Source: Oscillospiraceae bacterium (GTDB lineage: Bacteria; Bacillota; Clostridia; Oscillospirales; Acutalibacteraceae). From it: a stretch of 64,000 bases of DNA. Shown in pieces: positions 25,543 through 49,252 of this stretch (the stretch's first letter is position 1; every line of letters starts with the position of its first letter). The notes under the pieces were generated by a model. The model was not told the origin of the DNA. It saw only the letters and a program-made list of their open reading frames with translations, and did no database searches. The position numbers and the translations under genes were made by a program. The stretch covers positions 9,789-73,788 of the forward strand of contig JAQVFM010000001.1 in NCBI GenBank assembly GCA_028697255.1. The letters run 5' to 3'.

Positions 25543-26736
25543 TTATCCCTTTGCTTTTCCTTTTAAGCCACCCAATGCAGCACTCGATAATATATTTGTG
25601 TCATAGGTATATGTGATTGCCTGACGCTCCCGATGGCGTTTGAACGCAAGCTCGATCATTTTATCCAGCAAGGAAGAAAAGCTCATGCCTCCCGCTTCCC
25701 AGAGATAAAAAGATAGAGAGCCGGGTATAGTGTTTATTTCGTTGACGTACAAATCGCCTGTTTCTTTGTCATTTAAAAAGTCAATGCGTGCAACGCCGGA
25801 ACAGCCAAGGGCATTAAATGTTTTGACAGCAAGCTTGCGCACGCGCGATTCAAGCTCGGACGGAATTTCGGCGGGAAGCCGCCGTTTAAGGCTGCCCATA
25901 CCGCTTTTTTCAAGACCTGCATCGCCCGAGCTGCTGAGGTATTTGTCGCTGTAATCCAAAATATTGTTTGTTGTGACCGGCTCCTCGCATACCGATGATA
26001 TTGCATTGTCAGCATCGCCAAGAACGGCGCAGTTAATCTCGCGCAGGTTTTGAACGGCAGGCTCGACAAGTGCACGCGATGAAAAGCTCAGTGCCGCATC
26101 TATTGCCGTTTTTAGCTCCAATCTGTCACGGACAAGAGATATTCCGATTGATGAGCCGAGGTTCACCGGCTTTATTATTACTGGATAATCAAATTCTTTT
26201 TCAATTTTTTCAAGCGTGTCCTCCTCGTTTGCCGCATATTGATGGGAGGTAAAAGTCAATGCGTCAAGCACAGGCAGACCGTGTTGTTTCAGCACCGCTT
26301 TCATTGCGTATTTGTCCATACCAAGTGCCGAAGACAGTACATCACAGCCTGTGTACGGTACACCTAACATTTCTAAAAATCCCATTAGTGTCCCGTCCTC
26401 GGCGTTTGTGCCGTGAACGACAGGCATCGCAACATCAAATTCAGCTATAATATTGTTACCCAGCTTTTTTGCAGGATATCGCATCAGCGCAACTCTGCCA
26501 CTGTGCGGTACAAGAAGGACGCGCACAGCTTTTTTAAGATTTGAGTCCATGTCCTTATAGCTTTCGATGTCGCCCATGTGCTCGCCGGTGTAAAAGATAT
26601 TGTCTTTTGAAATATATATCGGTAATGGTTGATATTTTGAGCTATCAAGTGCCGAGCATGCCTGTATCCCTGAAATAATAGACACTTCATGCTCGACACT
26701 CTGCCCGCCGAAAAACACTGCTACGGTTATTTTCAT
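25543..26736 (-). CDS. ddl: D-alanine--D-alanine ligase family protein (long form)
   Basis: FFGGQSVEHEVSIISG N-terminus, ATP-grasp core, NEINTIPG. The ATG at 26736 is 9 nt after a GGAGG RBS. It has an internal insertion and a C-terminal extension relative to classical Ddl. Confidence 0.85.
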   Translation of the reverse strand: MKITVAVFFGGQSVEHEVSIISGIQACSALDSSKYQPLPIYISKDNIFYTGEHMGDIESYKDMDSNLKKAVRVLLVPHSGRVALMRYPAKKLGNNIIAEFDVAMPVVHGTNAEDGTLMGFLEMLGVPYTGCDVLSSALGMDKYAMKAVLKQHGLPVLDALTFTSHQYAANEEDTLEKIEKEFDYPVIIKPVNLGSSIGISLVRDRLELKTAIDAALSFSSRALVEPAVQNLREINCAVLGDADNAISSVCEEPVTTNNILDYSDKYLSSSGDAGLEKSGMGSLKRRLPAEIPSELESRVRKLAVKTFNALGCSGVARIDFLNDKETGDLYVNEINTIPGSLSFYLWEAGGMSFSSLLDKMIELAFKRHRERQAITYTYDTNILSSAALGGLKGKAKG

Positions 26737-26749
26737 ATGCATCATCCTC

Positions 26750-28312
26750 CTAAAAATTGTCGGGGAGATCGTTTTCTAAAAGCACGATTCGTTTACCCTC
26801 ATTCGGCAAATCATTTACCGCTTTAAGCGCATCTTCAAGAGTGGCAGAAACAATTAGCCGTTCGGGTTGAAACCCGGCAGCAAGCAAACCTTCACGCAAT
26901 GGCGGTGCCTGCTTTTTCCCAACAAGTATTGCATAATCGCAGCATGAAGCTGCGTAAAAGCCGAGTTCACGATTAAGCTCGTGTTGCCTCTGTCCCAGTT
27001 CAACCATACCCGGTGTTACCAAAACCCGTTGCCCCTCAAAGCTACGCAAAACATCAAGTGCACAGCGAAAGCCCTGTGGGTTGGAATTATACGAGTCGTC
27101 AATAATCCCATTGGGCAGCAATTGAAGCCTGTGCTCAACCGGCTTTAAGCGCTTTATCGGCACAACAAGTTCTTCAAGAGGTATGCCGAGAGTGTGTGCC
27201 ACAGCAATGCAGCCTAATATGTTTTGAATATTGTGAGCACCCAGCAGACGCGTATTAAAATGTCGCATTTCCCCGCTTGGCGTTTTGACAGTGAAAGAGC
27301 TGCCATCATTGCTTACCGTTATTCCAAACGCGGTATAATTTGTATTCGTATTATTTATGCCATATGTCATAACAGGCTTGGTTACAGTGTGATTATTGAT
27401 ATAGCTGTTGTCGGCATTTAAAAACAGCATGCCGTCGTCGGGTATTGCGTCGGCCAGCTCAAACTTTGTACCAATTATATTTTCAATTGTTTTAAAGGTT
27501 TCAAGATGCTGTTCGCCTATTGAGGTTATAATGCCATAATGCGGATGAGTTAATTCACAAATTTCACTTATGTCGCCGCTGGATTTGGCGCCCATTTCAA
27601 CAATAAAAATATCGTGGGTGGGGCGGAGTTGTTCGCGTATTGTTCGTACAACGCCCATTGTGGTGTTGTAGCTCTCGGGAGTCATAAGCACGTTGTACTT
27701 GACCGATAACAGTGAATAAAGAAAATTCTTTGTGCTTGTTTTGCCGTAACTGCCCGTAATACCGATTACGGTAAGCCGTGACATGCTTGCAAGTATGCGA
27801 CGCGCATCATTTATATATCTTTTAGCAATAAACTTTTCTATCGGGCGGTTAATAAAGTTGGTAAGTAACGTCACAAGCGGCGTCAATGCCGCCCATAAAA
27901 ACAAAAATCCAAGTCCCAGCCGCACCATGCCGGTAAAATAAACCGCCGCATAAACGGTGATTAAAAGCAGCGCATGGGTGAGGAGCAGCCGCATAACGCG
28001 GTGTGTGAACACCAATGGCTTTTTAGCCCTTTTTGGTTTATTTAAATATCCGTGTATTAACAAAAGCAGTGCACATGCAATTCTTTCTTTCCAGCCGCTT
28101 TTTTGCAGTAAAAAGCAGGCAACCGCTATCATAGACAACAGCAGCCAACCCATCTTATCGGCAATTGCGCCTCTGTTTTCCTTAATCCAGCGCATATACC
28201 GCCGATTTCGGTAGGAGTTAAGCTGCAGCATATGAATATAGTGTAGTGATAACAGCGTACAGTCGGCAGCAAATGCAATAAACAGTATAAGAGTGGTGAC
28301 TGTGTCTAACAT
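26750..28312 (-). CDS. MurF-like Mur ligase with N-terminal multi-TM domain
   Basis: Central and C-terminal Mur ligase domains are present (GITGSYGKTSTK, EMGA, DDSYNSNP). They are preceded by about 170 aa of hydrophobic helices instead of the usual MurF N-domain. Confidence 0.7.
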   Translation of the reverse strand: MLDTVTTLILFIAFAADCTLLSLHYIHMLQLNSYRNRRYMRWIKENRGAIADKMGWLLLSMIAVACFLLQKSGWKERIACALLLLIHGYLNKPKRAKKPLVFTHRVMRLLLTHALLLITVYAAVYFTGMVRLGLGFLFLWAALTPLVTLLTNFINRPIEKFIAKRYINDARRILASMSRLTVIGITGSYGKTSTKNFLYSLLSVKYNVLMTPESYNTTMGVVRTIREQLRPTHDIFIVEMGAKSSGDISEICELTHPHYGIITSIGEQHLETFKTIENIIGTKFELADAIPDDGMLFLNADNSYINNHTVTKPVMTYGINNTNTNYTAFGITVSNDGSSFTVKTPSGEMRHFNTRLLGAHNIQNILGCIAVAHTLGIPLEELVVPIKRLKPVEHRLQLLPNGIIDDSYNSNPQGFRCALDVLRSFEGQRVLVTPGMVELGQRQHELNRELGFYAASCCDYAILVGKKQAPPLREGLLAAGFQPERLIVSATLEDALKAVNDLPNEGKRIVLLENDLPDNF

Positions 28313-28368: not shown

Positions 28369-29109
28369 TTAGTTTATAAAAGCATCCAGCACACGGCTGC
28401 ATTGTCCCCATCTTTCGGCAAAGGCAAAATGGCCCGAATTTTTTAATACGACCAGCCCTGAGTCCGGAATCAGTTTTTCCATTTTTTGTCCGTCACAAAG
28501 TGGAGTTGAAGTGTCGTTGTCTCCCCAAATCAGCAGTGTAGGCACCGCAATGCTCGGCAGCAGATGCGTTAAATCCTCGTTTACCGAACGAACCAGTGTC
28601 TGCCGCATTATCGGACTGGCGCTACGATAGTCAGACGATCCGACCTTGGACCTCATGGCTTCGGCATAAGCCGGCAATATTCGTTTGGCCGCCTTGTAAG
28701 AATATACCTTTATATAGTATTTTAATCCGCGTCGGGGTTTTATGCCTGCCGCATTCATCAAAACAATTTTAGGGACAGAAAATTTTAAATTTTGGCGGTT
28801 TAACAGTTTTATGATTATGCGTGCGCCGTAAGAATGCCCTATCAGGACCGGTGAGTGTAAACCTACGGCGGATATAAATTTAATGATAAAATCGACATAG
28901 TTATCCACCGACCAGGGTGCCGCCGGTTCTTCGCTGTCCCCAAAACCGGGCAGGTCAGGCGCGACTACACGGCAGCGCTGTGACAAATGGTCGGTAATCA
29001 GGCGATAGGTTTTTGCGGGCGCCGCCCAGCCGTGCAGCAACAGCACCTCGGTACCCTGACCCTCGTCGATATACCGGACGCGCTTTTTGTCTATCATGAT
29101 TTCCATCAT
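28369..29109 (-). CDS. Alpha/beta hydrolase
   Basis: LLLHGW...GHSYGA nucleophile elbow and a C-terminal GHF motif. Confidence 0.7.
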   Translation of the reverse strand: MMEIMIDKKRVRYIDEGQGTEVLLLHGWAAPAKTYRLITDHLSQRCRVVAPDLPGFGDSEEPAAPWSVDNYVDFIIKFISAVGLHSPVLIGHSYGARIIIKLLNRQNLKFSVPKIVLMNAAGIKPRRGLKYYIKVYSYKAAKRILPAYAEAMRSKVGSSDYRSASPIMRQTLVRSVNEDLTHLLPSIAVPTLLIWGDNDTSTPLCDGQKMEKLIPDSGLVVLKNSGHFAFAERWGQCSRVLDAFIN

Positions 29110-29426: not shown

Positions 29427-29485
29427 TTAAAAGCTGCCCCTTATACCGCGAACACAGCTTGTGTTCGCGATAAGTTATGGGGCAG
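29427..29485 (-). terminator. Composite hairpin terminator after the PASTA pseudokinase gene
   Basis: Outer stem GCTGCCCC/GGGGCAGC encloses a 10-bp CGCGAACACA/TGTGTTCGCG stem. On the minus strand it is followed by TTTT. Confidence 0.6.
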
Positions 29486-29506
29486 CATTATTGCAATGTC
29501 AGTCTT

Positions 29507-31204
29507 TTACCACCAGCCGTCTTGTTCGGTTGTAGTGGTTGTCAGTTTAGTCTCACTTACACGAAGGTTCACGGTGCTGCCTTCCTCAAGCTGTTGGCCC
29601 GCTTCCTGAACGCTTTCTACGATATCAATATCAAAAGTGTCGGACACTATCCTCATTATTTCAACTCTAAAGCCCAGAGCTTCAAGATACAATTTTGCAT
29701 GCTCATAGTGCCAGCCAGATACATTTGGTACGGTGATGGATTCAGACCCAGCACTTATAATAACCTTGATTGTTGACCCCTCTTCGGCTGGTGTTTCCGG
29801 TTTTGGTGTCTGGTCCAGAATTTCACCTTTAGGTCGGGAACTATACTTTTTATACTCGACCTCGACTTTCATTTTGCCGCCAAGTTTATTGTTGCGAATA
29901 TCGTAATAGCTTTTGCCAATCAAATCGGGTGTTGCAAACTTTTCGGTTTGCGGTACATATTCGGTTGTAGCCCTGCTTGTTGTTGTTTGAATAGCCGATG
30001 AGCTTGTGGTGCTTGAAGTTTCACCACCGCCGCCTATTAAATCAGGGAAAATAAGCAGCAAAACCGTGCCCGCAAGCAATAAAAGGAATATAAACACCGA
30101 CAATACAATCAAAACTGCGTATTTATAACGGCTTTCCTTTTTTTGGGGGGATTGGTCATCTGTTGGTTCCGGTTCAGGTTCAGGCATATCAGGCTTTTCA
30201 TCCTCACGCAGCCGTGATACGGCGGGTGCAGTCGAAAGCTGATCGCGGAAGTGCTCGATAGAACGCGGTCTGTTTTCGGGATTAACCTGCAATGCGTTGA
30301 AAAGCGCAGCGGCTATATAATCGGGCAATTCTTTTGCGACGTCGGTTGGGACAAATAAATCGTTGGAATCCTGTGCACGGCGAGATCCCTCAGGTGGCGG
30401 ATTTCCCGTCAATGTGCGGAAGATTGTTGCAGCAAGTCCGTATATGTCACTCAGTGCCCCTGTTTCTTGCCCAAAAGCATATTGTTCGGGAGCTGAATAA
30501 CCTGAAATAAGGCGTGGTCTCAAGTCAGTGTTGACACGACGTGCGTCGGCTATACTAAAGCCCCGAAGATACAGCTTGCCGTCATTACCAAGAATAAGGT
30601 TTTTTGGACTGATGCCCAAATGGAATATACCCGCCGAATGCAGTGAATTAAGCGAGGTTAGCAGGGGCATAAACAACGGCCTTGCTTCTTCCCATCTCAT
30701 ACGCCCGCCAATCTGTTTAAGCCGTGTTTCAAGCGTGTTTCCACCGTAGTATTCTGAAACGGTATAGGTCGTAAGGTTTTGTTCGAATATATCGTATATC
30801 GAAACAATTGACGAAAGCCCACGCATACGCGCAAGAGCGCGGGCATGTGTCTTAAATTTTTCGTGATAATCGCGGAAAGTATTTTCGCATCCGCTTATAA
30901 TCCGCAGTTTGCTGCTTTGGGAACGTTCAACGAGCGTGTCAGGCAGAAACTCCCGTATAGTTATCGGTGATTTGAGCACCCTGTCAAACCCAATATAAAC
31001 AGCGGCGTCACCCGTATGCTCAATAAGCTTTCCGACAATATACCGATCAGATAATAGTGTTCCGACAGTGAGATACAACGATTCATTGTCGCCGTTTGCA
31101 GGATAGCCGCATATGCCGCATTCTTTTCTTCCTTCGGGTAGCGGATTCATGCAGCCCATACAGAGTCTTTCCTGCCCTTTATATTCAGGCATCAGCGTCA
31201 CCAA
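29507..31204 (-). CDS. Membrane protein with zinc ribbon, degenerate Ser/Thr-kinase-like domain, one TM helix and two PASTA domains (predicted pseudokinase)
   Basis: The Hanks-fold landmarks SAPEQ, DIYGLA and NPENRP are retained. VAIK is replaced by ITIR, HRDxKPxN by HLGISPKN, and DFG by GFS. The TM helix is AVLIVLSVFIFLLLLAGTVLLLIF. Two PASTA-like repeats sit at the C-terminus. The start is GTG 31204 or ATG 31192. Confidence 0.75.
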   Translation of the reverse strand: MVTLMPEYKGQERLCMGCMNPLPEGRKECGICGYPANGDNESLYLTVGTLLSDRYIVGKLIEHTGDAAVYIGFDRVLKSPITIREFLPDTLVERSQSSKLRIISGCENTFRDYHEKFKTHARALARMRGLSSIVSIYDIFEQNLTTYTVSEYYGGNTLETRLKQIGGRMRWEEARPLFMPLLTSLNSLHSAGIFHLGISPKNLILGNDGKLYLRGFSIADARRVNTDLRPRLISGYSAPEQYAFGQETGALSDIYGLAATIFRTLTGNPPPEGSRRAQDSNDLFVPTDVAKELPDYIAAALFNALQVNPENRPRSIEHFRDQLSTAPAVSRLREDEKPDMPEPEPEPTDDQSPQKKESRYKYAVLIVLSVFIFLLLLAGTVLLLIFPDLIGGGGETSSTTSSSAIQTTTSRATTEYVPQTEKFATPDLIGKSYYDIRNNKLGGKMKVEVEYKKYSSRPKGEILDQTPKPETPAEEGSTIKVIISAGSESITVPNVSGWHYEHAKLYLEALGFRVEIMRIVSDTFDIDIVESVQEAGQQLEEGSTVNLRVSETKLTTTTTEQDGWW

Positions 31205-31242: not shown

Positions 31243-31271
31243 ATTGTACAAAAAAATATATGTTTAGTCAA
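31243..31271 (-). promoter_or_regulatory. Sigma-A type promoter for the pseudokinase gene
   Basis: Minus strand reads TTGACT, 17 nt, TACAAT. Confidence 0.5.
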
Positions 31272-31314: not shown

Positions 31315-32310
31315 TTATGTAGTATTTATGCCTTGTTTTATTTTATCCCTTAGCTTGATTTGTCGGATATCACGTCCGACAAATGTAAGCGGTACAAATG
31401 TACCGATAATGCGTGAGGTTATCTGTTCTCCGTAACGCTCGAGCTCGTTTTGGTTGAGATTTGTGCTTATAATCGTGGGCCGGCCATCAAGCATACGGCT
31501 GTTTATAAGATTATATAAGCATGAGGTATAAAACGGGCTTGAAAACTCCGCCCCCAAATCATCAAGAATCAACAAATCGCATTCGATCATCATATCCTGG
31601 CTGTTACCGTTTGTGCGACCAAAATGCTCCTTTTCGATCTGGTGCAAAAGCTTTTGAACCGGACCGTAGATTACGCCAAACCCGGCGTTAATCACGCAGC
31701 GTGCAATAGCCAATGAAACATGGGTTTTGCCCGTACCGGTCGCTCCGCGAAATAAAAGACTCGGAGAAGTCAAATCAAAGTCATCAGCGTAATTTTTACA
31801 ATATGCAAAAACTTCATTCATGCAATCGCGGGGTGACATTTTGCTTCGCGGGGTATCCGGATAATAATCAAGGCGAAGACTGTCAAAGCTGGCATCCTTC
31901 ATAGTACCCATATAACTCAGGCGTTTAAAGGCCTCCTCACGCAGAAGGGCCTTAAAACAGTCACACATTTTACTCCTGCAGTAGCCGGTATCTTCACAGC
32001 TTGGACAGGAATAACGCGGTTCGAAATTCGGCCTGTGTATACCTTCCTTTGCAAGAATCTCGGCAAGCTCAGCCTGCAGCGCAAGATTTTTATTTTTTAT
32101 GCGCTCCACCGCGGCGATAACATCCCCTTTGTCAAGCACGGCACGAGATACGCGTATCGCGGCATTAGCCATTTCGCGTTCAATTTCTTTGATGCGCGGG
32201 TGTTTTTTTACCATGCGTTCGTGCAGCGCTGTCGCCTTGGTCTGTGCACTGGTACGCCGGCGCTGAAGTTCGGCAAAGGCCGCGTCATAAACCTCCCTAC
32301 TATATCCCAT
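31315..32310 (-). CDS. DnaC/DnaI-like AAA+ helicase-loader protein
   Basis: Walker A GATGTGKTH, Walker B LLILDDLG, and an N-terminal Cys cluster (CPSCEDTGYC). It follows a DnaD-domain gene. Confidence 0.75.
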   Translation of the reverse strand: MGYSREVYDAAFAELQRRRTSAQTKATALHERMVKKHPRIKEIEREMANAAIRVSRAVLDKGDVIAAVERIKNKNLALQAELAEILAKEGIHRPNFEPRYSCPSCEDTGYCRSKMCDCFKALLREEAFKRLSYMGTMKDASFDSLRLDYYPDTPRSKMSPRDCMNEVFAYCKNYADDFDLTSPSLLFRGATGTGKTHVSLAIARCVINAGFGVIYGPVQKLLHQIEKEHFGRTNGNSQDMMIECDLLILDDLGAEFSSPFYTSCLYNLINSRMLDGRPTIISTNLNQNELERYGEQITSRIIGTFVPLTFVGRDIRQIKLRDKIKQGINTT

Positions 32311-32326
32311 TTAAATCTTCCTATCA

Positions 32327-33301
32327 TCACTTATTTTTAATATATACAGGCGTAAAGTTTCGCACCATATTTTCGTATTCTTCCAAATCATATGAGGTTT
32401 CTTTTTTCGGTTTTTTACTCTTGCCTGATTTTGTATCTTCTACTTTTTCAACCGAATCAATGCCCTGGCTGCGCCAGTTTTCGATAATCTTCATCATATA
32501 GCTGCTGTTAAACCTTCCGGTGGCTTTGATGCACTTTTCGTAAGCCAGCCGCAAAAGACCGCCGTCAATCTGCCAATCGCAAATCCAGCGTTCTGCCGCA
32601 TCTGATTGTGCAACAGTGGGAGATTGGTTAATGTTTAGCAGCTCACTTAATTTCTGCCACGCCTGACGTCGCCGTTCGAGTTTGCATAGGTATTGTTCTG
32701 CTGCCGAAATTGTATTGATCTCCCGATCCGACCAATCAAGTGCTACTTTTTCTATGTACCGCATATGAGATTTGCCGCAGGCGATTGCGTATTCAATCAC
32801 CATCAGTATAACCTCGACAGGCAGCCCCGCGGTATCATAAAGATACAAAAGCGTTTCCATATCGCCATTTGATATCGGCCGACCAAGCCTTGCCGAAGCA
32901 GTATCAAGCAAATATGTGAATTCTTCACTCTCTTTTTGGCGGTTTATTACCTCTTTCATAGTCGGCTTGACCGGACGGGGTCGCGATGCGGCCAATACAT
33001 GCTTGACGGCTTTTTTATTGTCTTCGGGATCTTTTTTCGTAGTTTTTTTCTCCTCTTGTGCCTCAGTAGTTATGAGTAAGTCTGTCTCAACCCAATATTG
33101 CAAAGCATCACGGCAATCGGCGGGAGTAAGTCCGATTGACTTTGAGCATTTTTCGGCATTAAAATTGCCTGATCCGTTTCTCAACAGCCAAATTAACACC
33201 TTTAACTGTGCAGAACCGGCCAGCCTGATATGCTCATCTGCCACAACGGCAGGAACCGCAAATATTTCATTTAGCATGTCCGGATTTAAACGATAGTCCA
33301 T
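32327..33301 (-). CDS. DnaD/DnaB_2-domain replication initiation protein
   Basis: Two DnaB_2-type repeats are visible (...VILMVIEYAIACGKSHMRYIEKVALDWSDREI... and ...CIKATGRFNSSYMMKIIENWRSQGI...). Confidence 0.7.
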   Translation of the reverse strand: MDYRLNPDMLNEIFAVPAVVADEHIRLAGSAQLKVLIWLLRNGSGNFNAEKCSKSIGLTPADCRDALQYWVETDLLITTEAQEEKKTTKKDPEDNKKAVKHVLAASRPRPVKPTMKEVINRQKESEEFTYLLDTASARLGRPISNGDMETLLYLYDTAGLPVEVILMVIEYAIACGKSHMRYIEKVALDWSDREINTISAAEQYLCKLERRRQAWQKLSELLNINQSPTVAQSDAAERWICDWQIDGGLLRLAYEKCIKATGRFNSSYMMKIIENWRSQGIDSVEKVEDTKSGKSKKPKKETSYDLEEYENMVRNFTPVYIKNK

Positions 33302-33444: not shown

Positions 33445-33494
33445 AATTATCATTATTTTATTGCCTGTAAAAAATGAAAAAAAGGAGCAGAGAA

Positions 33495-34367
33495 ATGCAG
33501 TTTCGCACAGATTTAGCAATTGAAGCAGTTAAGGCAGCGCCAGAGACAAAGCTGCCTGGTATAAGGCAGGAAAGTCAGCAAATTGAGGATATTAAACTTA
33601 CAAAAATTTATATCGAGAACGAACAGGGAGAAAAGGAGCTTGGGCGGCCGAAAGGCACCTATATAACTGCAGAATTGCCACCTTTGTCAGACGATGAGGA
33701 GAATATGGAGCAAAAAGCAACAGTGCTTGGGGCAGAGCTTCGTTCATTGTTGCCTGAACAAGGTACTGTTTTGGTAGTGGGATTGGGCAATCAGTCGGTA
33801 ACTCCCGATGCTCTGGGACCACGGTCAGCGGGCATGGTGCTGGCGACGCGGCATATTGAGGGTGAATTTGCACGCAGCACAGGATTGGACAAGCTTCGGT
33901 CGGCAGCTGTGTTTGTCCCGGGAGTGCTGGGGCAAACAGGTGTTGAAAGCAGTGAAATGGTGCGCGGCATATGCGGTATTGTTAAACCTGCCGCGGTTAT
34001 TGTAATCGACGCACTTGCTGCCCGCAGTGTAGAACGGCTTGGCTGCACTGTGCAGATTTGTGATACCGGTATTGCTCCGGGTTCGGGTGTAGGTAATAAC
34101 CGTATTGCGCTAAATCGTGAAACGCTTGGTGTGCCGGTTATCGGGCTGGGTGTTCCAACTGTTGTGGACGCACGCACCGTTGCAATGGACTTGACCGGGC
34201 GTGAAGAGTCAGGAGAGCAGGTGACACCCCGCGGCTCCGAAATGATGGTGACGCCCCGAGAAATTGATTTGATTATTCGGCGGGCTTCTAATCTTATTGC
34301 AATGATGGTAAACGCAGCGCTTCAGCCCGAATATTCTCCGCTGTCATTGATTTCAGCTGCAGGATAG
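33495..34367 (+). CDS. gpr: Germination protease (GPR endopeptidase)
   Basis: FRTDLAIEA N-terminus and GLGNQSVTPDALGP motif. The ATG at 33495 is 7 nt after GGAG. An alternative ATG is at 33474. Confidence 0.88.
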   Translation: MQFRTDLAIEAVKAAPETKLPGIRQESQQIEDIKLTKIYIENEQGEKELGRPKGTYITAELPPLSDDEENMEQKATVLGAELRSLLPEQGTVLVVGLGNQSVTPDALGPRSAGMVLATRHIEGEFARSTGLDKLRSAAVFVPGVLGQTGVESSEMVRGICGIVKPAAVIVIDALAARSVERLGCTVQICDTGIAPGSGVGNNRIALNRETLGVPVIGLGVPTVVDARTVAMDLTGREESGEQVTPRGSEMMVTPREIDLIIRRASNLIAMMVNAALQPEYSPLSLISAAG

Positions 34368-34474
34368 CAAGCCTGTCTGTCAGTACTCTGTTATCAGTAT
34401 AAAACAGGTCTTCATGAAGATTATGTAATTGACTTATGGAATAAAATTTTATTTTTTCGCATAGTCTGTTAGCG

Positions 34475-35629
34475 GTGATGAAAATGCGAAAAAGGCCGCA
34501 AAACAAGCATAATAAACCGCGGCTGGAAACAGCTCGTGCTGCAATAGCGGCTACATCGCTTGTTGTTTGTCTTATGCTAACTGTGAGTGGTTTATCGGGT
34601 GGACGGCTGCTCAGTATGGGGAGGGGGCTTGCGATGCTGTCGGCAGGCATCATGCAGCCCGAGGGCGGTGCACAGATGCTCTGTGAACGGCTGAGCCGCA
34701 TACCGGCCGCACAGCAAGGTGACAACCGGAGTGAACCGGTATTTTTGACGACATATACACCGGGTGGGGGTATGCAGACATCGGGCGAGCTTTCACCGCT
34801 ACCGAAAGACATATCCGGCGTTGTACCGTCCGAGGCAGGTGACGGGGGTAAAATTGTTGAGATTCAAATGACGACCGGTAGCAATTTCATACAGGGCGTT
34901 GCAATAAAAAACGGTAGCAGCCGTACGGTGGATATATCGTCTCAGTTAAAAATAAAACCGGATATTAAGATTACAGATTCGGTCAATCCCCAGGTTCTTA
35001 TAATGCATACGCATACAACCGAATGCTATATGTCTTATTATGCCGGTTATTACAACAAATCTGATGAATCAAGGTCAAAGGACCATACACGAAACGTTGT
35101 TGCAGTGGGTGAAGCTATTTGTGCACAGCTTCGCGCTGCCAACATTGCAGCGATCCACGATGTAACCGTACACGATTCGCCTAAATATTCCGGGGCATAC
35201 GAGCGTTCAGTTCAGACTGTAAAAAAAATTCTTGAACAGTACCCGTCTATTAGCGTTGTTATCGACATTCATCGTGACGCAATATACAAATCTAAAACAG
35301 AAAGATATAAACCAACCATAACAATAAACGGGCGAAAGGCCGCACAAATGATGATAATTGCAAGTGTGGGCAATTCGGCTGCAGTACCCCATCCAAACTG
35401 GCAGCAAAACCTCAGGTTTGCACTGAGATTGCAAAGTGCACTTCATACGCAATATACAGGCATTATGCGGCCATTATACATTGTGGACAGCCGCTATAAT
35501 CAGCATCTTACAAATGGCTCGTTGCTAATTGAGGTTGGTGCCGATTCTAATACCGTAAGCGAGGCAGTATATTCGGGCGAAATTTTGGGAAAAACATTGG
35601 CACAGGTACTTAATACACTAAAACAATAG
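34475..35629 (+). CDS. spoIIP: Stage II sporulation protein P
   Basis: VLIMHTHTTECY and IDIHRD motifs of the SpoIIP amidase family. It follows gpr as in Bacillus. The exact start is uncertain (GTG 34475, ATG 34478 or ATG 34484). Confidence 0.85.
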   Translation: MMKMRKRPQNKHNKPRLETARAAIAATSLVVCLMLTVSGLSGGRLLSMGRGLAMLSAGIMQPEGGAQMLCERLSRIPAAQQGDNRSEPVFLTTYTPGGGMQTSGELSPLPKDISGVVPSEAGDGGKIVEIQMTTGSNFIQGVAIKNGSSRTVDISSQLKIKPDIKITDSVNPQVLIMHTHTTECYMSYYAGYYNKSDESRSKDHTRNVVAVGEAICAQLRAANIAAIHDVTVHDSPKYSGAYERSVQTVKKILEQYPSISVVIDIHRDAIYKSKTERYKPTITINGRKAAQMMIIASVGNSAAVPHPNWQQNLRFALRLQSALHTQYTGIMRPLYIVDSRYNQHLTNGSLLIEVGADSNTVSEAVYSGEILGKTLAQVLNTLKQ

Positions 35630-46718: not shown

Positions 46719-46985
46719 CGATTTGGCGGGTGTTTTTCCTGAACTAAATACCCTTCCGGTCTTTTTTGCACCGGACTTGGCATTTCCCCCTTGTCGGGCG
46801 CTGGTAGGCGAGGTGCCCCCATCCCGCCGCTATAACAAATACACATAGTATTCGTTGCATTGTCAATTCAGCACATCGGCTCACCCCCGTTTTTATTTTT
46901 ATATTTATATCTGAATATAAGTCCCGGACTTTTGTATAATAATAAATCCAGCGGAAAAAATAGTGAATACATGAGCGGGAGAGGG

Positions 46986-47360
46986 ATGGTTAAAGTGGAT
47001 TGGATGATGATTATAAAAGCTTTTTTAGTAGGCGGCATTATTTGCGTAATAGGTCAGCTTCTGATTGATTATACCGCTATGACCCCTGCAAGAATACTTG
47101 TACTATTTGTAACGCTCGGAGTAGCATTGACGGCTGTTGGTTTATATGATCCGTTGGTCAAGTTTGCCGGAGGCGGTGCCACCGTACCGCTTTTAGGCTT
47201 TGGGTATTCTCTTGCTAAAGGAACAGAAGAGGCAGTTAAGCAGAATGGATTGCTTGGTGCGCTTACCGGTGGAGTTACTGCTGCAGCAGGAGGTATAGCA
47301 ATATCAATTTTCCTCGGATTTTTATGTGCACTGGTTGCCAAATCCCATGATAAATCATAA
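46986..47360 (+). CDS. spoVAE: Stage V sporulation protein AE (SpoVAEB-type)
   Basis: IKAFLVGGIICVIGQLLID... and the GFGYSLAKG region match the SpoVAC/SpoVAE membrane family. The start is ATG 46986 or 47004. The upstream part of the track ORF is non-coding. Confidence 0.75.
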   Translation: MVKVDWMMIIKAFLVGGIICVIGQLLIDYTAMTPARILVLFVTLGVALTAVGLYDPLVKFAGGGATVPLLGFGYSLAKGTEEAVKQNGLLGALTGGVTAAAGGIAISIFLGFLCALVAKSHDKS

Positions 47361-48256: not shown

Positions 48257-49252
48257 TCAAACAACATATATGATTGGCACATGGCTCAGTTTTTTTGAAA
48301 GCTGCTCTCTCAAAAATTGTTCACCCTCCGCTCGGACATCTTCACGATAACAATATTTACCCCGCCCCCGTCCGGTCATCAGCGATTTATCAAATAACTC
48401 TACTGCTTTTGGAAACGCATCTTTATTTATTGCGCGGTGCACATAGCTGTAAGTCATGAAAATTATTTCAATAAATAAATTTTTTTTAGCCTTTTCTGAA
48501 AGCTGATCTGACAACTGCTCGATTAACCGTTTGTACAACGCCTTCCAATTGTCTACTAAAACAACAGGAGCAATCAATAGACCCACTTTATATCCTGCAT
48601 CGCACATTTTATTAAGTGCATTAATTCTTGATGTTAAATCCGATGTTCCAAACTCAACCTTGCGGATGATCTCTTGTGGATTTACGCTCATGCGCATAAT
48701 AATCCGTTTTCTATGACGCAGTTCAAGAAGAGGCTCAACCATATCAAACTTTGTCGGGAATGTAAGAAAACCCTTTTCGGACTCGGAAAACTTTTCTATT
48801 GTCCATTCTAAATTTTGCGTTATTGTGTTTTCGAGTACAAGATCGCTATTGCTGCCGATTTCAAAGACAAGGTCTTTTTCCGAACGACCGGCTGTTTTTA
48901 TTAGCTTATCCATCATCTGCTCACGATTGACAAACAGTCTGAGATAGGAGCATTTGTTATAGTTGCAGACGAGATAGCAGTAAAGGCACATTGCACTGCA
49001 GCCGGACGAGGTGTACGGCACCAGAAAATCGGACACCTTGTGGTTTGGCACGTATTTTAATGACTTTCTTACACCAATAATCAGGTGCTTTTTCATTTTT
49101 GCGAACTCTTTATTTTCATTTTTACGAAGCTGTTCAATATTATTATGGCTTTCAATTGGTATCCATGGAACATGATTAAATTTTTCTCGAAATTGCTTGC
49201 CAAGCTCATATTCAAGCACAGCGGGTTCGTAAAATACCTTATCCGGATACAA
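48257..49252 (-). CDS. splB: Spore photoproduct lyase
   Basis: Radical SAM cluster CSAMCLYC (CxxxCxxC), a size of about 331 aa, and overall SplB collinearity. Confidence 0.82.
   Translation of the reverse strand: MYPDKVFYEPAVLEYELGKQFREKFNHVPWIPIESHNNIEQLRKNENKEFAKMKKHLIIGVRKSLKYVPNHKVSDFLVPYTSSGCSAMCLYCYLVCNYNKCSYLRLFVNREQMMDKLIKTAGRSEKDLVFEIGSNSDLVLENTITQNLEWTIEKFSESEKGFLTFPTKFDMVEPLLELRHRKRIIMRMSVNPQEIIRKVEFGTSDLTSRINALNKMCDAGYKVGLLIAPVVLVDNWKALYKRLIEQLSDQLSEKAKKNLFIEIIFMTYSYVHRAINKDAFPKAVELFDKSLMTGRGRGKYCYREDVRAEGEQFLREQLSKKLSHVPIIYVV

Follow-up and report, generated by a model that had tools for sequence, protein, structure and literature searches.

What is left for a receptor kinase to do when the residues that would carry out phosphotransfer have been replaced? 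This question is raised by a gene on the minus strand of contig JAQVFM010000001.1 of an Oscillospiraceae bacterium, of which we analysed a stretch of 64,000 nucleotides (nt), here called the window. The encoded protein of 561 amino acids (aa) consists, from the N- to the C-terminus, of a putative four-cysteine (Cys4) zinc ribbon, a domain with the fold of Hanks kinases, an acidic linker, a single transmembrane helix and two PASTA domains. PASTA kinases are the main sensors of cell-wall status in Gram-positive bacteria. As described below, the kinase fold of this protein is intact, and all positions that contact the nucleotide or take part in catalysis are replaced save the Asn of the catalytic loop and the His of the HRD motif. 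We therefore read it as a conserved, catalytically inactive receptor pseudokinase that serves as a non-catalytic cell-wall sensor or scaffold, with a probability of about 0.75. It probably signals via the binding of partners and not via phosphorylation.

Replaced catalytic residues in an intact kinase fold

The catalytic columns were read from phmmer alignments to two solved kinases, Stk1 and PpkA, of which PpkA was both the best sequence match in the PDB (E = 1e-21) and the best fold match. In strand beta3, ITIREFLP aligns with IAIKEYMP of PpkA, which places R80 at the position of the Lys, and in helix alphaC, FKTHARALA aligns with FIQEARLLA, which places H116 at that of the Glu. The catalytic loop reads HLGISPKN where Stk1 has HRDIKPQN (G193 at the HRD Asp), and the DFG region reads GFSIA where Stk1 has DFGIA (G211 at the Asp). 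The Gly loop, EHTGDAAVY against GEGGFGIVY of PpkA, is degenerate and acidic (E58...G61-D62). These alignments reproduce the substitutions in the Gly loop, VAIK, the alphaC Glu, HRD and DFG that an earlier note on this DNA had read by eye. Its statement that every position needed for phosphotransfer differs holds for R80, H116, G193, G211 and the Gly loop and goes too far for N198 of the catalytic loop and H191 of HRD, which are both retained. The beta3 Lys/alphaC Glu pair, the HRD Asp, the DFG Asp and the GxGxxG loop of a competent kinase are thus all missing, and the profile- and structure-based check of the catalytic columns that the note had called for found neither the Lys nor the two Asp residues there. 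An alignment to PknB made with MAFFT was discarded, as it set VAVK against residues 95-98, a misplacement caused by an insertion between beta3 and alphaC. Ungapped extension from the LSDRY and D30/D70 anchors sets K40 of PknB opposite R80. A conserved Lys emerged under neither the MAFFT/PknB nor the phmmer/PpkA alignment.

The fold itself is well supported. The Pfam Pkinase profile matched with 60.9 bits (cutoff 31.7), the match spanning only profile positions 44-252. An AlphaFold2 model built from 56 homologues had a mean predicted local distance difference test score (pLDDT) of 86.8, with values above 90 over residues 11-330, and shows a small N-terminal beta module ahead of a two-lobed kinase fold, in which an additional hairpin separates beta3 from alphaC. 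In a Foldseek search of the PDB, this model matched PpkA, Stk1/PknB of S. aureus and PknA/PknB of M. tuberculosis at TM-to-target values of 0.7-0.8 (0.79-0.81 for PpkA and Stk1), as expected of a Hanks fold. At aa 211-237, the model shows a full-length activation segment with a pLDDT of ~94-96. The insertion between beta3 and alphaC is common to PpkA, a kinase of the type VI secretion system (T6SS), and is absent from PknB and Stk1. This suggests that the lineage of ribbon-bearing kinases is no simple offshoot of PrkC/PknB. The alignment along PrkC/PknB-type kinases described in the earlier note is therefore right as to the Hanks fold, on which Pfam and Foldseek agree, and needs qualification as to its being PrkC-like. 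Scored against the PASTA-kinase equivalog NF033483 of NCBIfam, the protein reached 172.4 bits, below the cutoff of 450, and is therefore no orthodox PASTA kinase.

Two PASTA stretches were recognised by Pfam (72.4 bits, cutoff 23.2, E = 3e-20), and this region matches the PASTA ectodomain of Stk1 in the PDB (3py9/3m9g, E ~1e-14). Together with hydropathy and the AlphaFold2 model, this bears out the linker, single transmembrane helix and two PASTA modules that had been proposed. Since the basic stretch KKESRYKY precedes the only transmembrane helix, the kinase fold is predicted to lie inside the cell and the PASTA domains outside. The linker is predicted to be disordered (pLDDT <50 for residues 333-353) and has a median length of 33 aa across the family, with 25% D/E, a net charge of about -5, few Ser/Thr and a terminal basic KKxxRxKYA motif. 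In canonical PASTA kinases, by contrast, the juxtamembrane regions are phosphorylated on Thr. The Cys4 module matched no Pfam ribbon family at E <= 1, and its sequence matches in the PDB were sub-threshold only, to the C4 ribbon protein L40e. In a set of 76 species-level sequences, its residues are almost invariant (C11 in 74/76, C14 in 75/76, and C25, C28 and N36 each in 76/76).

Conservation of the substitutions and their origin

To follow the substitutions through the family, we counted residues in the best 120 of 505 relatives found by homology search (43-100% identity, of similar length and with identical Pfam domains) together with the query, 121 sequences in all. The beta3 Lys column contained Arg in 108 sequences, Gln in 7, His in 5 and Trp in 1, and Lys in none. 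His occupied the alphaC Glu column in 111 sequences. The HRD His was present in 121/121, with Gly (111) or Ala (10) at the Asp position, and the DFG Asp column held Gly in 101, Asp in 10 and Asn in 9. Several replacement or flanking residues are near-invariant, namely D62 (120/121) and Y66, E81 and R118 (each 121/121), and the species-level set agrees (D62 75/76, E81 76/76, H191 76/76). The substitutions are thus conserved and not strain-specific, which was one of the doubts raised with the original observation. Against a 96%-identical orthologue (L004), the Nei-Gojobori method counted 114 synonymous and 24 non-synonymous differences, which gives a ratio of non-synonymous to synonymous substitution rates (dN/dS) of 0.052 for the whole protein. 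Constraint is tightest in the ribbon and kinase region, where dN/dS is 0.029. This means that strong purifying selection maintains the replaced catalytic residues.

The family is large. When one genome per species was scanned, up to 361 genomes encoded a relative, and the best 80 of these were all metagenome-assembled genomes (MAGs) of uncultured Oscillospiraceae, Ruminococcaceae, Acutalibacteraceae or 'Ca. Avimonas'. Among ~240 listed homologues, no cultured carrier was found, all names being those of MAGs, and NCBI labels these proteins just 'PASTA domain-containing protein'. As every named member comes from uncultured Oscillospirales of gut or digester, this restriction to MAGs may well be the cause of the family's absence from catalogues built on RefSeq and UniProt.

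To place the loss of catalysis, we searched 1.84 billion representatives clustered at 50% identity exhaustively with phmmer and aligned the 150 nearest to the family hidden Markov model. All had E < 1e-70 and 29-56% identity, and nearly all span ribbon, kinase and PASTA. They fall into two clearly separate groups of 131 pseudokinases and 19 sisters that are catalytically intact. In the sisters, the Gly loop reads G-x-G-x-F-G (tip F in 19/19), whereas 118/131 pseudokinases have an acidic tip. The VAIK Ala is kept in 18/19 sisters and is R, T, Y, F, I or L in the pseudokinases; the beta3 Lys is kept in 17/19, against R in 94 and K in 19 of the 131. For the alphaC Glu (19/19), the pseudokinases have L (70), Y (16) or H (11), and for the Met gatekeeper (19/19) they have S, T or Y. 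The HRD Asp, again present in 19/19 sisters, is G in 107 and A in 17 pseudokinases, the catalytic-loop Asn (19/19) is T in 72 and N in 46, and the DFG Asp (18/19) is G in 87 and D in 15. Structural residues are common to both groups (Y66, E81, D134, H191, F212, the APE Glu E236, D249 and R308). At position 222 of the activation loop, 87/131 pseudokinases carry Ser or Thr, where the intact sisters have R or K.

The four-Cys ribbon occurs in 131-144 of the 150 aligned representatives, the intact sisters among them. Of the 21 sequences that retain the HRD Asp, 20 grouped in one exclusive clade by neighbour joining. As far as a midpoint-rooted distance tree can tell, this agrees with catalysis having been lost once, long ago, in a lineage that already bore the ribbon. 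Intact ribbon sisters thereby stand beside their dead descendants, a natural experiment that asks what role a kinase fold has once catalysis is lost.

The intact sisters are of two kinds. One comprises multi-kinase proteins within kinase/PP2C arrays, and the other ribbon-kinases with 8-13 PASTA repeats in VWA-PP2C-kinase clusters. The latter include P0159 and P0224 (L085 4331-8143 and L086 7647-10451), encoded in MAGs of Oscillospiraceae/Clostridiales in the order VWA - PP2C - kinase(SBP_bac_8) - kinase. We considered whether these PASTA-rich sisters are the PrkC of the lineage and rejected this, as their context is VWA-PP2C-kinase, not prpC-prkC-rsgA, and is not near dnaD/dnaI. Among the arrays, L084 (1147-16340) contains five consecutive Hanks-kinase genes following a PP2C gene, with LRR/CW_binding proteins alongside; one product of 1,291 aa, P0133, combines four Pkinase stretches, and a neighbour of 1,515 aa has Sel1 repeats. 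A further protein, P0122, carries 30 PASTA repeats in 2,161 aa and is without a kinase domain.

A conserved junction with helicase-loader-like genes

In the window, the pseudokinase gene is preceded by a gene for a DnaD-domain protein and one for a helicase-loader-like protein (Table 1). The latter scored 274.6 bits against NCBIfam NF005304 (cutoff 215) and has DnaC of E. coli as its best PDB match, and the Pfam family DnaB_2, to which the product of the first gene belongs, is described as 'replication initiation and membrane attachment'. The placement of the gene just downstream of DnaD-like and DnaC-like genes in the earlier note is thereby borne out. What that remark on the neighbours did not convey is that the adjacency is a conserved, selected feature.

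Three diverged homologues on long contigs (L001-L003) have the same gene order in wholly different surroundings. Counting the 69 loci with sufficient upstream DNA, the dnaI-like gene lies directly upstream on the same strand in 59, down to 37% identity, and the dnaD-like gene is present along with it in 57. In 4/69 loci the dnaD/dnaI-like pair lies ~8 kb off on the opposite strand, and in 6/69 it was not found within the locus. In distant members, the pseudokinase gene starts 2-30 nt past the stop codon of the dnaI-like gene, with a Shine-Dalgarno sequence that lies within the last part of that gene or shortly past it, so there is no space for a terminator or promoter. The genes outside the trio belong to 33 families upstream (55 loci) and 31 families downstream (50 loci). 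As the trio junction has outlasted many rearrangements, selection is favoured over inertia as the explanation for its persistence. In the Oscillospirales subclade, the pseudokinase gene is the third cistron of a dnaD-like/dnaI-like operon.

Table 1. Coordinates of the pseudokinase gene, its parts and its neighbours in the window
Feature	Position	Strand	Details
DnaD-domain/DnaB_2 gene, first of trio	32327..33301	-	two DnaB_2 stretches; Pfam DnaB_2 113 bits; TIGR01446 DnaD_dom
DnaC/DnaI-type AAA+ helicase-loader-like gene	31315..32310	-	Pfam IstB_IS21; directly upstream of pseudokinase gene
Sigma-70-like promoter motif TTGACT-17-TACAAT	31243..31271	-	10/12 matches; within 110-nt gap upstream of pseudokinase gene
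Complete coding sequence, ribbon-pseudokinase-transmembrane-PASTA protein	29507..31192	-	561 aa; stop codon 29507-29509
N-terminal Cys4 zinc-ribbon-like module, CMGC-x10-CGICG...N36	31085..31162	-	aa 11-36; AlphaFold2 pLDDT >90
Hanks-kinase-fold pseudokinase domain	30218..31054	-	aa 47-325
beta3-alphaC insertion, ~17-20 residues	30887..30946	-	aa 83-102; extra beta hairpin in model
Acidic Ser/Thr-poor juxtamembrane linker	30134..30217	-	aa 326-353; ends in basic stop-transfer KKESRYKY
Single transmembrane helix	30050..30133	-	aa 354-381; hydropathy maximum 3.05 over 19 aa; AlphaFold2 helix 355-381
Ser/Thr-rich disordered spacer	29945..30049	-	aa 382-416; ahead of PASTA domains
Two extracellular PASTA domains	29552..29944	-	aa 417-481, 482-547; AlphaFold2 pLDDT ~90-96
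Intrinsic-terminator-like nested hairpin, GCUGCCCC...GGGGCAGC, then UUUU	29429..29486	-	21 nt past stop codon

The window itself has a gap of 110 nt between the dnaI-like gene and the pseudokinase gene, in which no terminator was found. The open reading frame, first placed at 29507-31204, is indeed present on the minus strand; its likely start is ATG 31192, which gives the N-terminus MPEYKGQERLCMGC, and 31204 is an upstream in-frame TTG that would extend the protein by 4 aa. Residue numbers follow the 561-aa form. Downstream, the hairpin folds at -40 kcal/mol (z = -7.37), and 0/200 shuffled sequences folded as well by direct folding. A simple terminator scan had overlooked this hairpin and instead reported a weak one inside the dnaI-like gene; direct folding resolved the discrepancy. 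Promoter-like sites in the gap region are no commoner than in shuffled sequence, so that TTGACT-17-TACAAT is a consensus match only. The claim that the gene has its own promoter and its own terminator therefore stands for the motif and for the strong hairpin, with the restriction that the promoter is lineage-specific, as distant relatives are fused into the upstream operon.

The neighbours deserve a few observations of their own. The DnaI/DnaC-like protein contains a Cys cluster, CPSCEDTGYCRSKMCDC, in its N-terminal half (window 31957-32007, minus strand; aa 102-118), which recalls the module through which B. subtilis DnaI binds Zn and interacts with the helicase (PMC1636449, PMC2673437). Farther off, the minus strand at 26750-28312 encodes a 520-aa MurF-like Mur ligase whose N-terminal domain is replaced by ~175 aa with 4-5 hydrophobic segments. 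It matches the murF model at positions 71-398 only, with 237.6 bits, below the cutoff of 288.6, and is flanked by an alpha/beta hydrolase (28369-29109) and a 400-aa Ddl (25543-26745). We rejected this hydrolase-murF-ddl block as evidence of a cell-wall-operon context, as it is kept only in the closest relatives. Sporulation and germination genes surround the locus (gpr, spoIIP, spoVAC/AEB and the gene for spore photoproduct lyase; 33474-35629 on the plus strand, 46860-47360 on the plus strand and 48257-49252 on the minus strand), and the host is therefore a spore-forming member of the Clostridia. This context bears on a possible germination-linked role of the PASTA sensor.

Proposed function and relation to known kinases and pseudokinases

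In the mechanism that we propose, the PASTA domains would bind peptidoglycan precursors or fragments, or would bring the protein to where the wall is synthesised, and their engagement would promote back-to-back dimerisation of the N-lobes via the R50/L73/D134 surface. Residues R10, L33 and D76 of PknB correspond in the alignment to R50 (R 49 / H 23), L73 (56/76) and D134 (76/76), and the PDB includes L33D and D76A interface mutants of PknB. The rigid pseudo-active domain and the ribbon would then form a docking or allosteric platform that transfers no phosphate. The activation segment, which is modelled with confidence, points to a pseudo-active conformation that is fixed and would be used for docking. 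At the former ATP site, the acidic tip of the Gly loop (D/E62) and the basic beta3 residue (R/K80) would probably form a salt bridge that replaces the lost Lys-Glu bridge and closes the site. The acidic tip and the beta3 Arg, together with the larger side chains that replace the VAIK Ala, suggest that the nucleotide pocket is self-closed. We infer scaffolding or allosteric signalling, in line with the retained PknB dimer residues, the ordered activation segment and the precedents of MviN and CD2148 discussed below. By analogy with these two proteins, the partner may be a canonical Hanks kinase; going by the operon, it may be the helicase-loader proteins.

Several points weigh against this interpretation. 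The most distant pseudokinase representatives (31-35% identity) lie away from dnaD/dnaI in 3/3 cases, which makes the operon linkage a feature of the Oscillospirales subclade. Ligand binding by the PASTA domains is assumed from PrkC, PknB and StkP, the Cys4 module is presumed to bind zinc from its Cys pattern, and both the closure of the ATP pocket and the bridge between D62 and R80 are deduced from the residues in these columns. Moreover, the window protein has a small Thr at the position of the VAIK Ala and keeps N198, and Arg can at times stand in for Lys. With this Thr, N198 and R80, the window protein may still bind nucleotide.

A first alternative holds that the pseudokinase heterodimerises with a canonical Hanks kinase, acts as its decoy or is phosphorylated by it, and in this way tunes its signalling. 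The conserved dimer surface would serve such a pairing, as would the pseudokinase-specific Ser/Thr at position 222, and there are precedents in the phospho-dependent docking of FhaA to MviN and in the modulation of PrkC by CD2148 (PMC12599244, PMC9674922, PMC8262956). The same surface is equally compatible with homodimerisation, however, and the juxtamembrane linker is poor in Ser/Thr. Nor does the locus offer a partner: no canonical kinase, PP2C or FHA gene was found in the Pfam-annotated 15.5-51 kb of the window, no PP2C within +/-10 kb in L001-L003, and no second kinase-like gene by tblastn in the 64-kb window or in 83 loci. We therefore entertain a kinase partner only tentatively.

A second alternative assigns the protein to replication. 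Here, the pseudokinase would tether or regulate the DnaD/DnaB-like and DnaI-like loaders and so link the status of peptidoglycan to the initiation or restart of replication. The conserved trio, its short junctions and the rearrangement of both flanks (>30 families each) speak for it, and so does the membership of the first gene in DnaB_2. B. subtilis DnaB, too, is membrane-associated, though it has no transmembrane segment. The localisation of DnaB at oriC is treated in PMC2874997. More speculatively, the acidic juxtamembrane linker could mimic nucleic acid. On the other hand, membership in an operon may mean co-expression only, the linkage is missing in the three most distant representatives and in ~10/69 loci, and our search of the literature on PASTA proteins with DnaD or DnaI yielded no paper that links them. 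We regard coupling to replication as rather unlikely. Its most specific form, in which Oscillospirales have recruited a peptidoglycan-sensing pseudokinase as a dedicated third component of the helicase-loading module that gates or tethers the loader by wall status or at the exit from spore dormancy, we consider unlikely too and a shade more doubtful.

A third alternative, to which we give little credence, is that the domain is a cryptic enzyme that keeps nucleotide binding and performs atypical phosphotransfer or SelO-like AMPylation via D62, R80, E81 and H191, with H116 in the subfamily. The near-invariance of the replacement residues and the retained N198 would suit such an activity, and the published families DYD and ActPs2, in which K is likewise changed to R, have been suggested to retain ligand binding. 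However, a candidate catalytic base is absent (124/131 have G or A in place of the HRD Asp), most members lack the DFG Asp, acidic residues in the Gly loop would repel phosphates, bulkier residues replace the VAIK Ala, and H116 varies within the clade, L being the most frequent residue at this position. The idea that the gene is turning into a pseudogene, or is a copy of PrkC that decayed in one strain only, has practically no probability left. Nothing speaks for it besides the missing catalytic residues, and it is refuted by the column conservation and a dN/dS of 0.05. The reading frame is intact in hundreds of species, and the Shine-Dalgarno sequence and operon structure are conserved.

A conserved receptor pseudokinase that senses or scaffolds at the cell wall thus remains our preferred reading. 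In these terms, the protein is a Hanks-fold bacterial pseudokinase with PASTA receptor architecture. Bacterial pseudokinases have been catalogued only recently, and an atlas of bacterial serine/threonine kinases and its companion review distinguish seven families (ActPs1, ActPs2, ActPs3, GLW, CP1, DYD and DLHK). Going by the published descriptions, neither PASTA nor a zinc ribbon is mentioned for any of the seven, whose motifs also depart from those found here; the atlas mentions PASTA only for the active KAPD family. Our analysis adds a large, strongly constrained, PASTA-linked clade that is absent from both the catalogue and the review. Searches of the literature for PASTA with DnaD/DnaI, for a pseudokinase with a helicase loader and for a zinc ribbon with a PASTA kinase returned nothing relevant. 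The operon linkage raises the hypothesis that wall sensing feeds into the control of replication. To our knowledge, the coupling of wall growth to replication in Firmicutes is poorly understood. If the hypothesis is true, there would be a direct molecular link from wall growth to the initiation of replication, with a dead kinase as the coupling device.

The closest overall likeness is to the PASTA kinases (PrkC/PknB/StkP/Stk1, KAPD), which share the cytoplasmic kinase fold (TM ~0.8), the single transmembrane helix and the extracellular PASTA repeats. Unlike these, the protein described here has replaced catalytic and ATP-contact residues, only two PASTA domains, an extra Cys4 ribbon and a PpkA-like insertion, and its gene, next to which no PP2C gene was found, follows dnaD/dnaI-like genes instead of lying in a prpC-prkC operon. 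T6SS PpkA shares the insertion and an I-x-I-[KR]-E-[FY]-x-P motif, but is an active proteobacterial kinase with a periplasmic VWA-type domain and neither PASTA nor a ribbon. PknG has a Cys-rich metal-binding module, a rubredoxin-like domain, immediately N-terminal to its Hanks core (PMC8546545). It is, however, an active, cytosolic or secreted actinobacterial kinase, no sequence similarity to it was detected, and the ribbon described here is short, with the pattern CxxC-x10-CxxCG.

Among the pseudokinases, the GLW family is proteobacterial and has GLW for HRD and LLLL/W at beta3, in contrast to H-L-G and I-x-I-R in the Clostridia studied here. The DYD family is closer, being membrane-associated and partly from Firmicutes, with the beta3 Lys changed to Arg and no alphaC Glu. 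It differs in keeping the HRD Asp, in having DYD for DFG, where the family here has the motifs H-L/R-G and G-F-S/C/A, and in its modelled ATP binding, and neither PASTA nor a ribbon has been described for it. CD2148 of C. difficile, an atypical serine/threonine kinase that may be a pseudokinase, shares the clostridial origin, a C-terminal transmembrane anchor and the lack of the catalytic-loop D and N; it does not autophosphorylate and modulates PrkC-dependent output (PMC9674922, PMC8262956). As described, it has no PASTA, no reported ribbon and Ser residues in the catalytic loop (S134/S139) where the present family has G/A. MviN (MurJ) of M. tuberculosis, an ActPs3 member, is an actinobacterial protein with an activation-loop deletion of ~40 residues, a fusion to the MurJ flippase and neither PASTA nor a ribbon. 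Like the present protein, it is a membrane-associated Hanks-fold pseudokinase in cell-wall biology that has lost all three catalytic motifs. MviN dimerises through the N-lobe surface that is retained here, with back-to-back residues L750 and D793 analogous to L73/D134, to act as a docking platform (PMC12599244).

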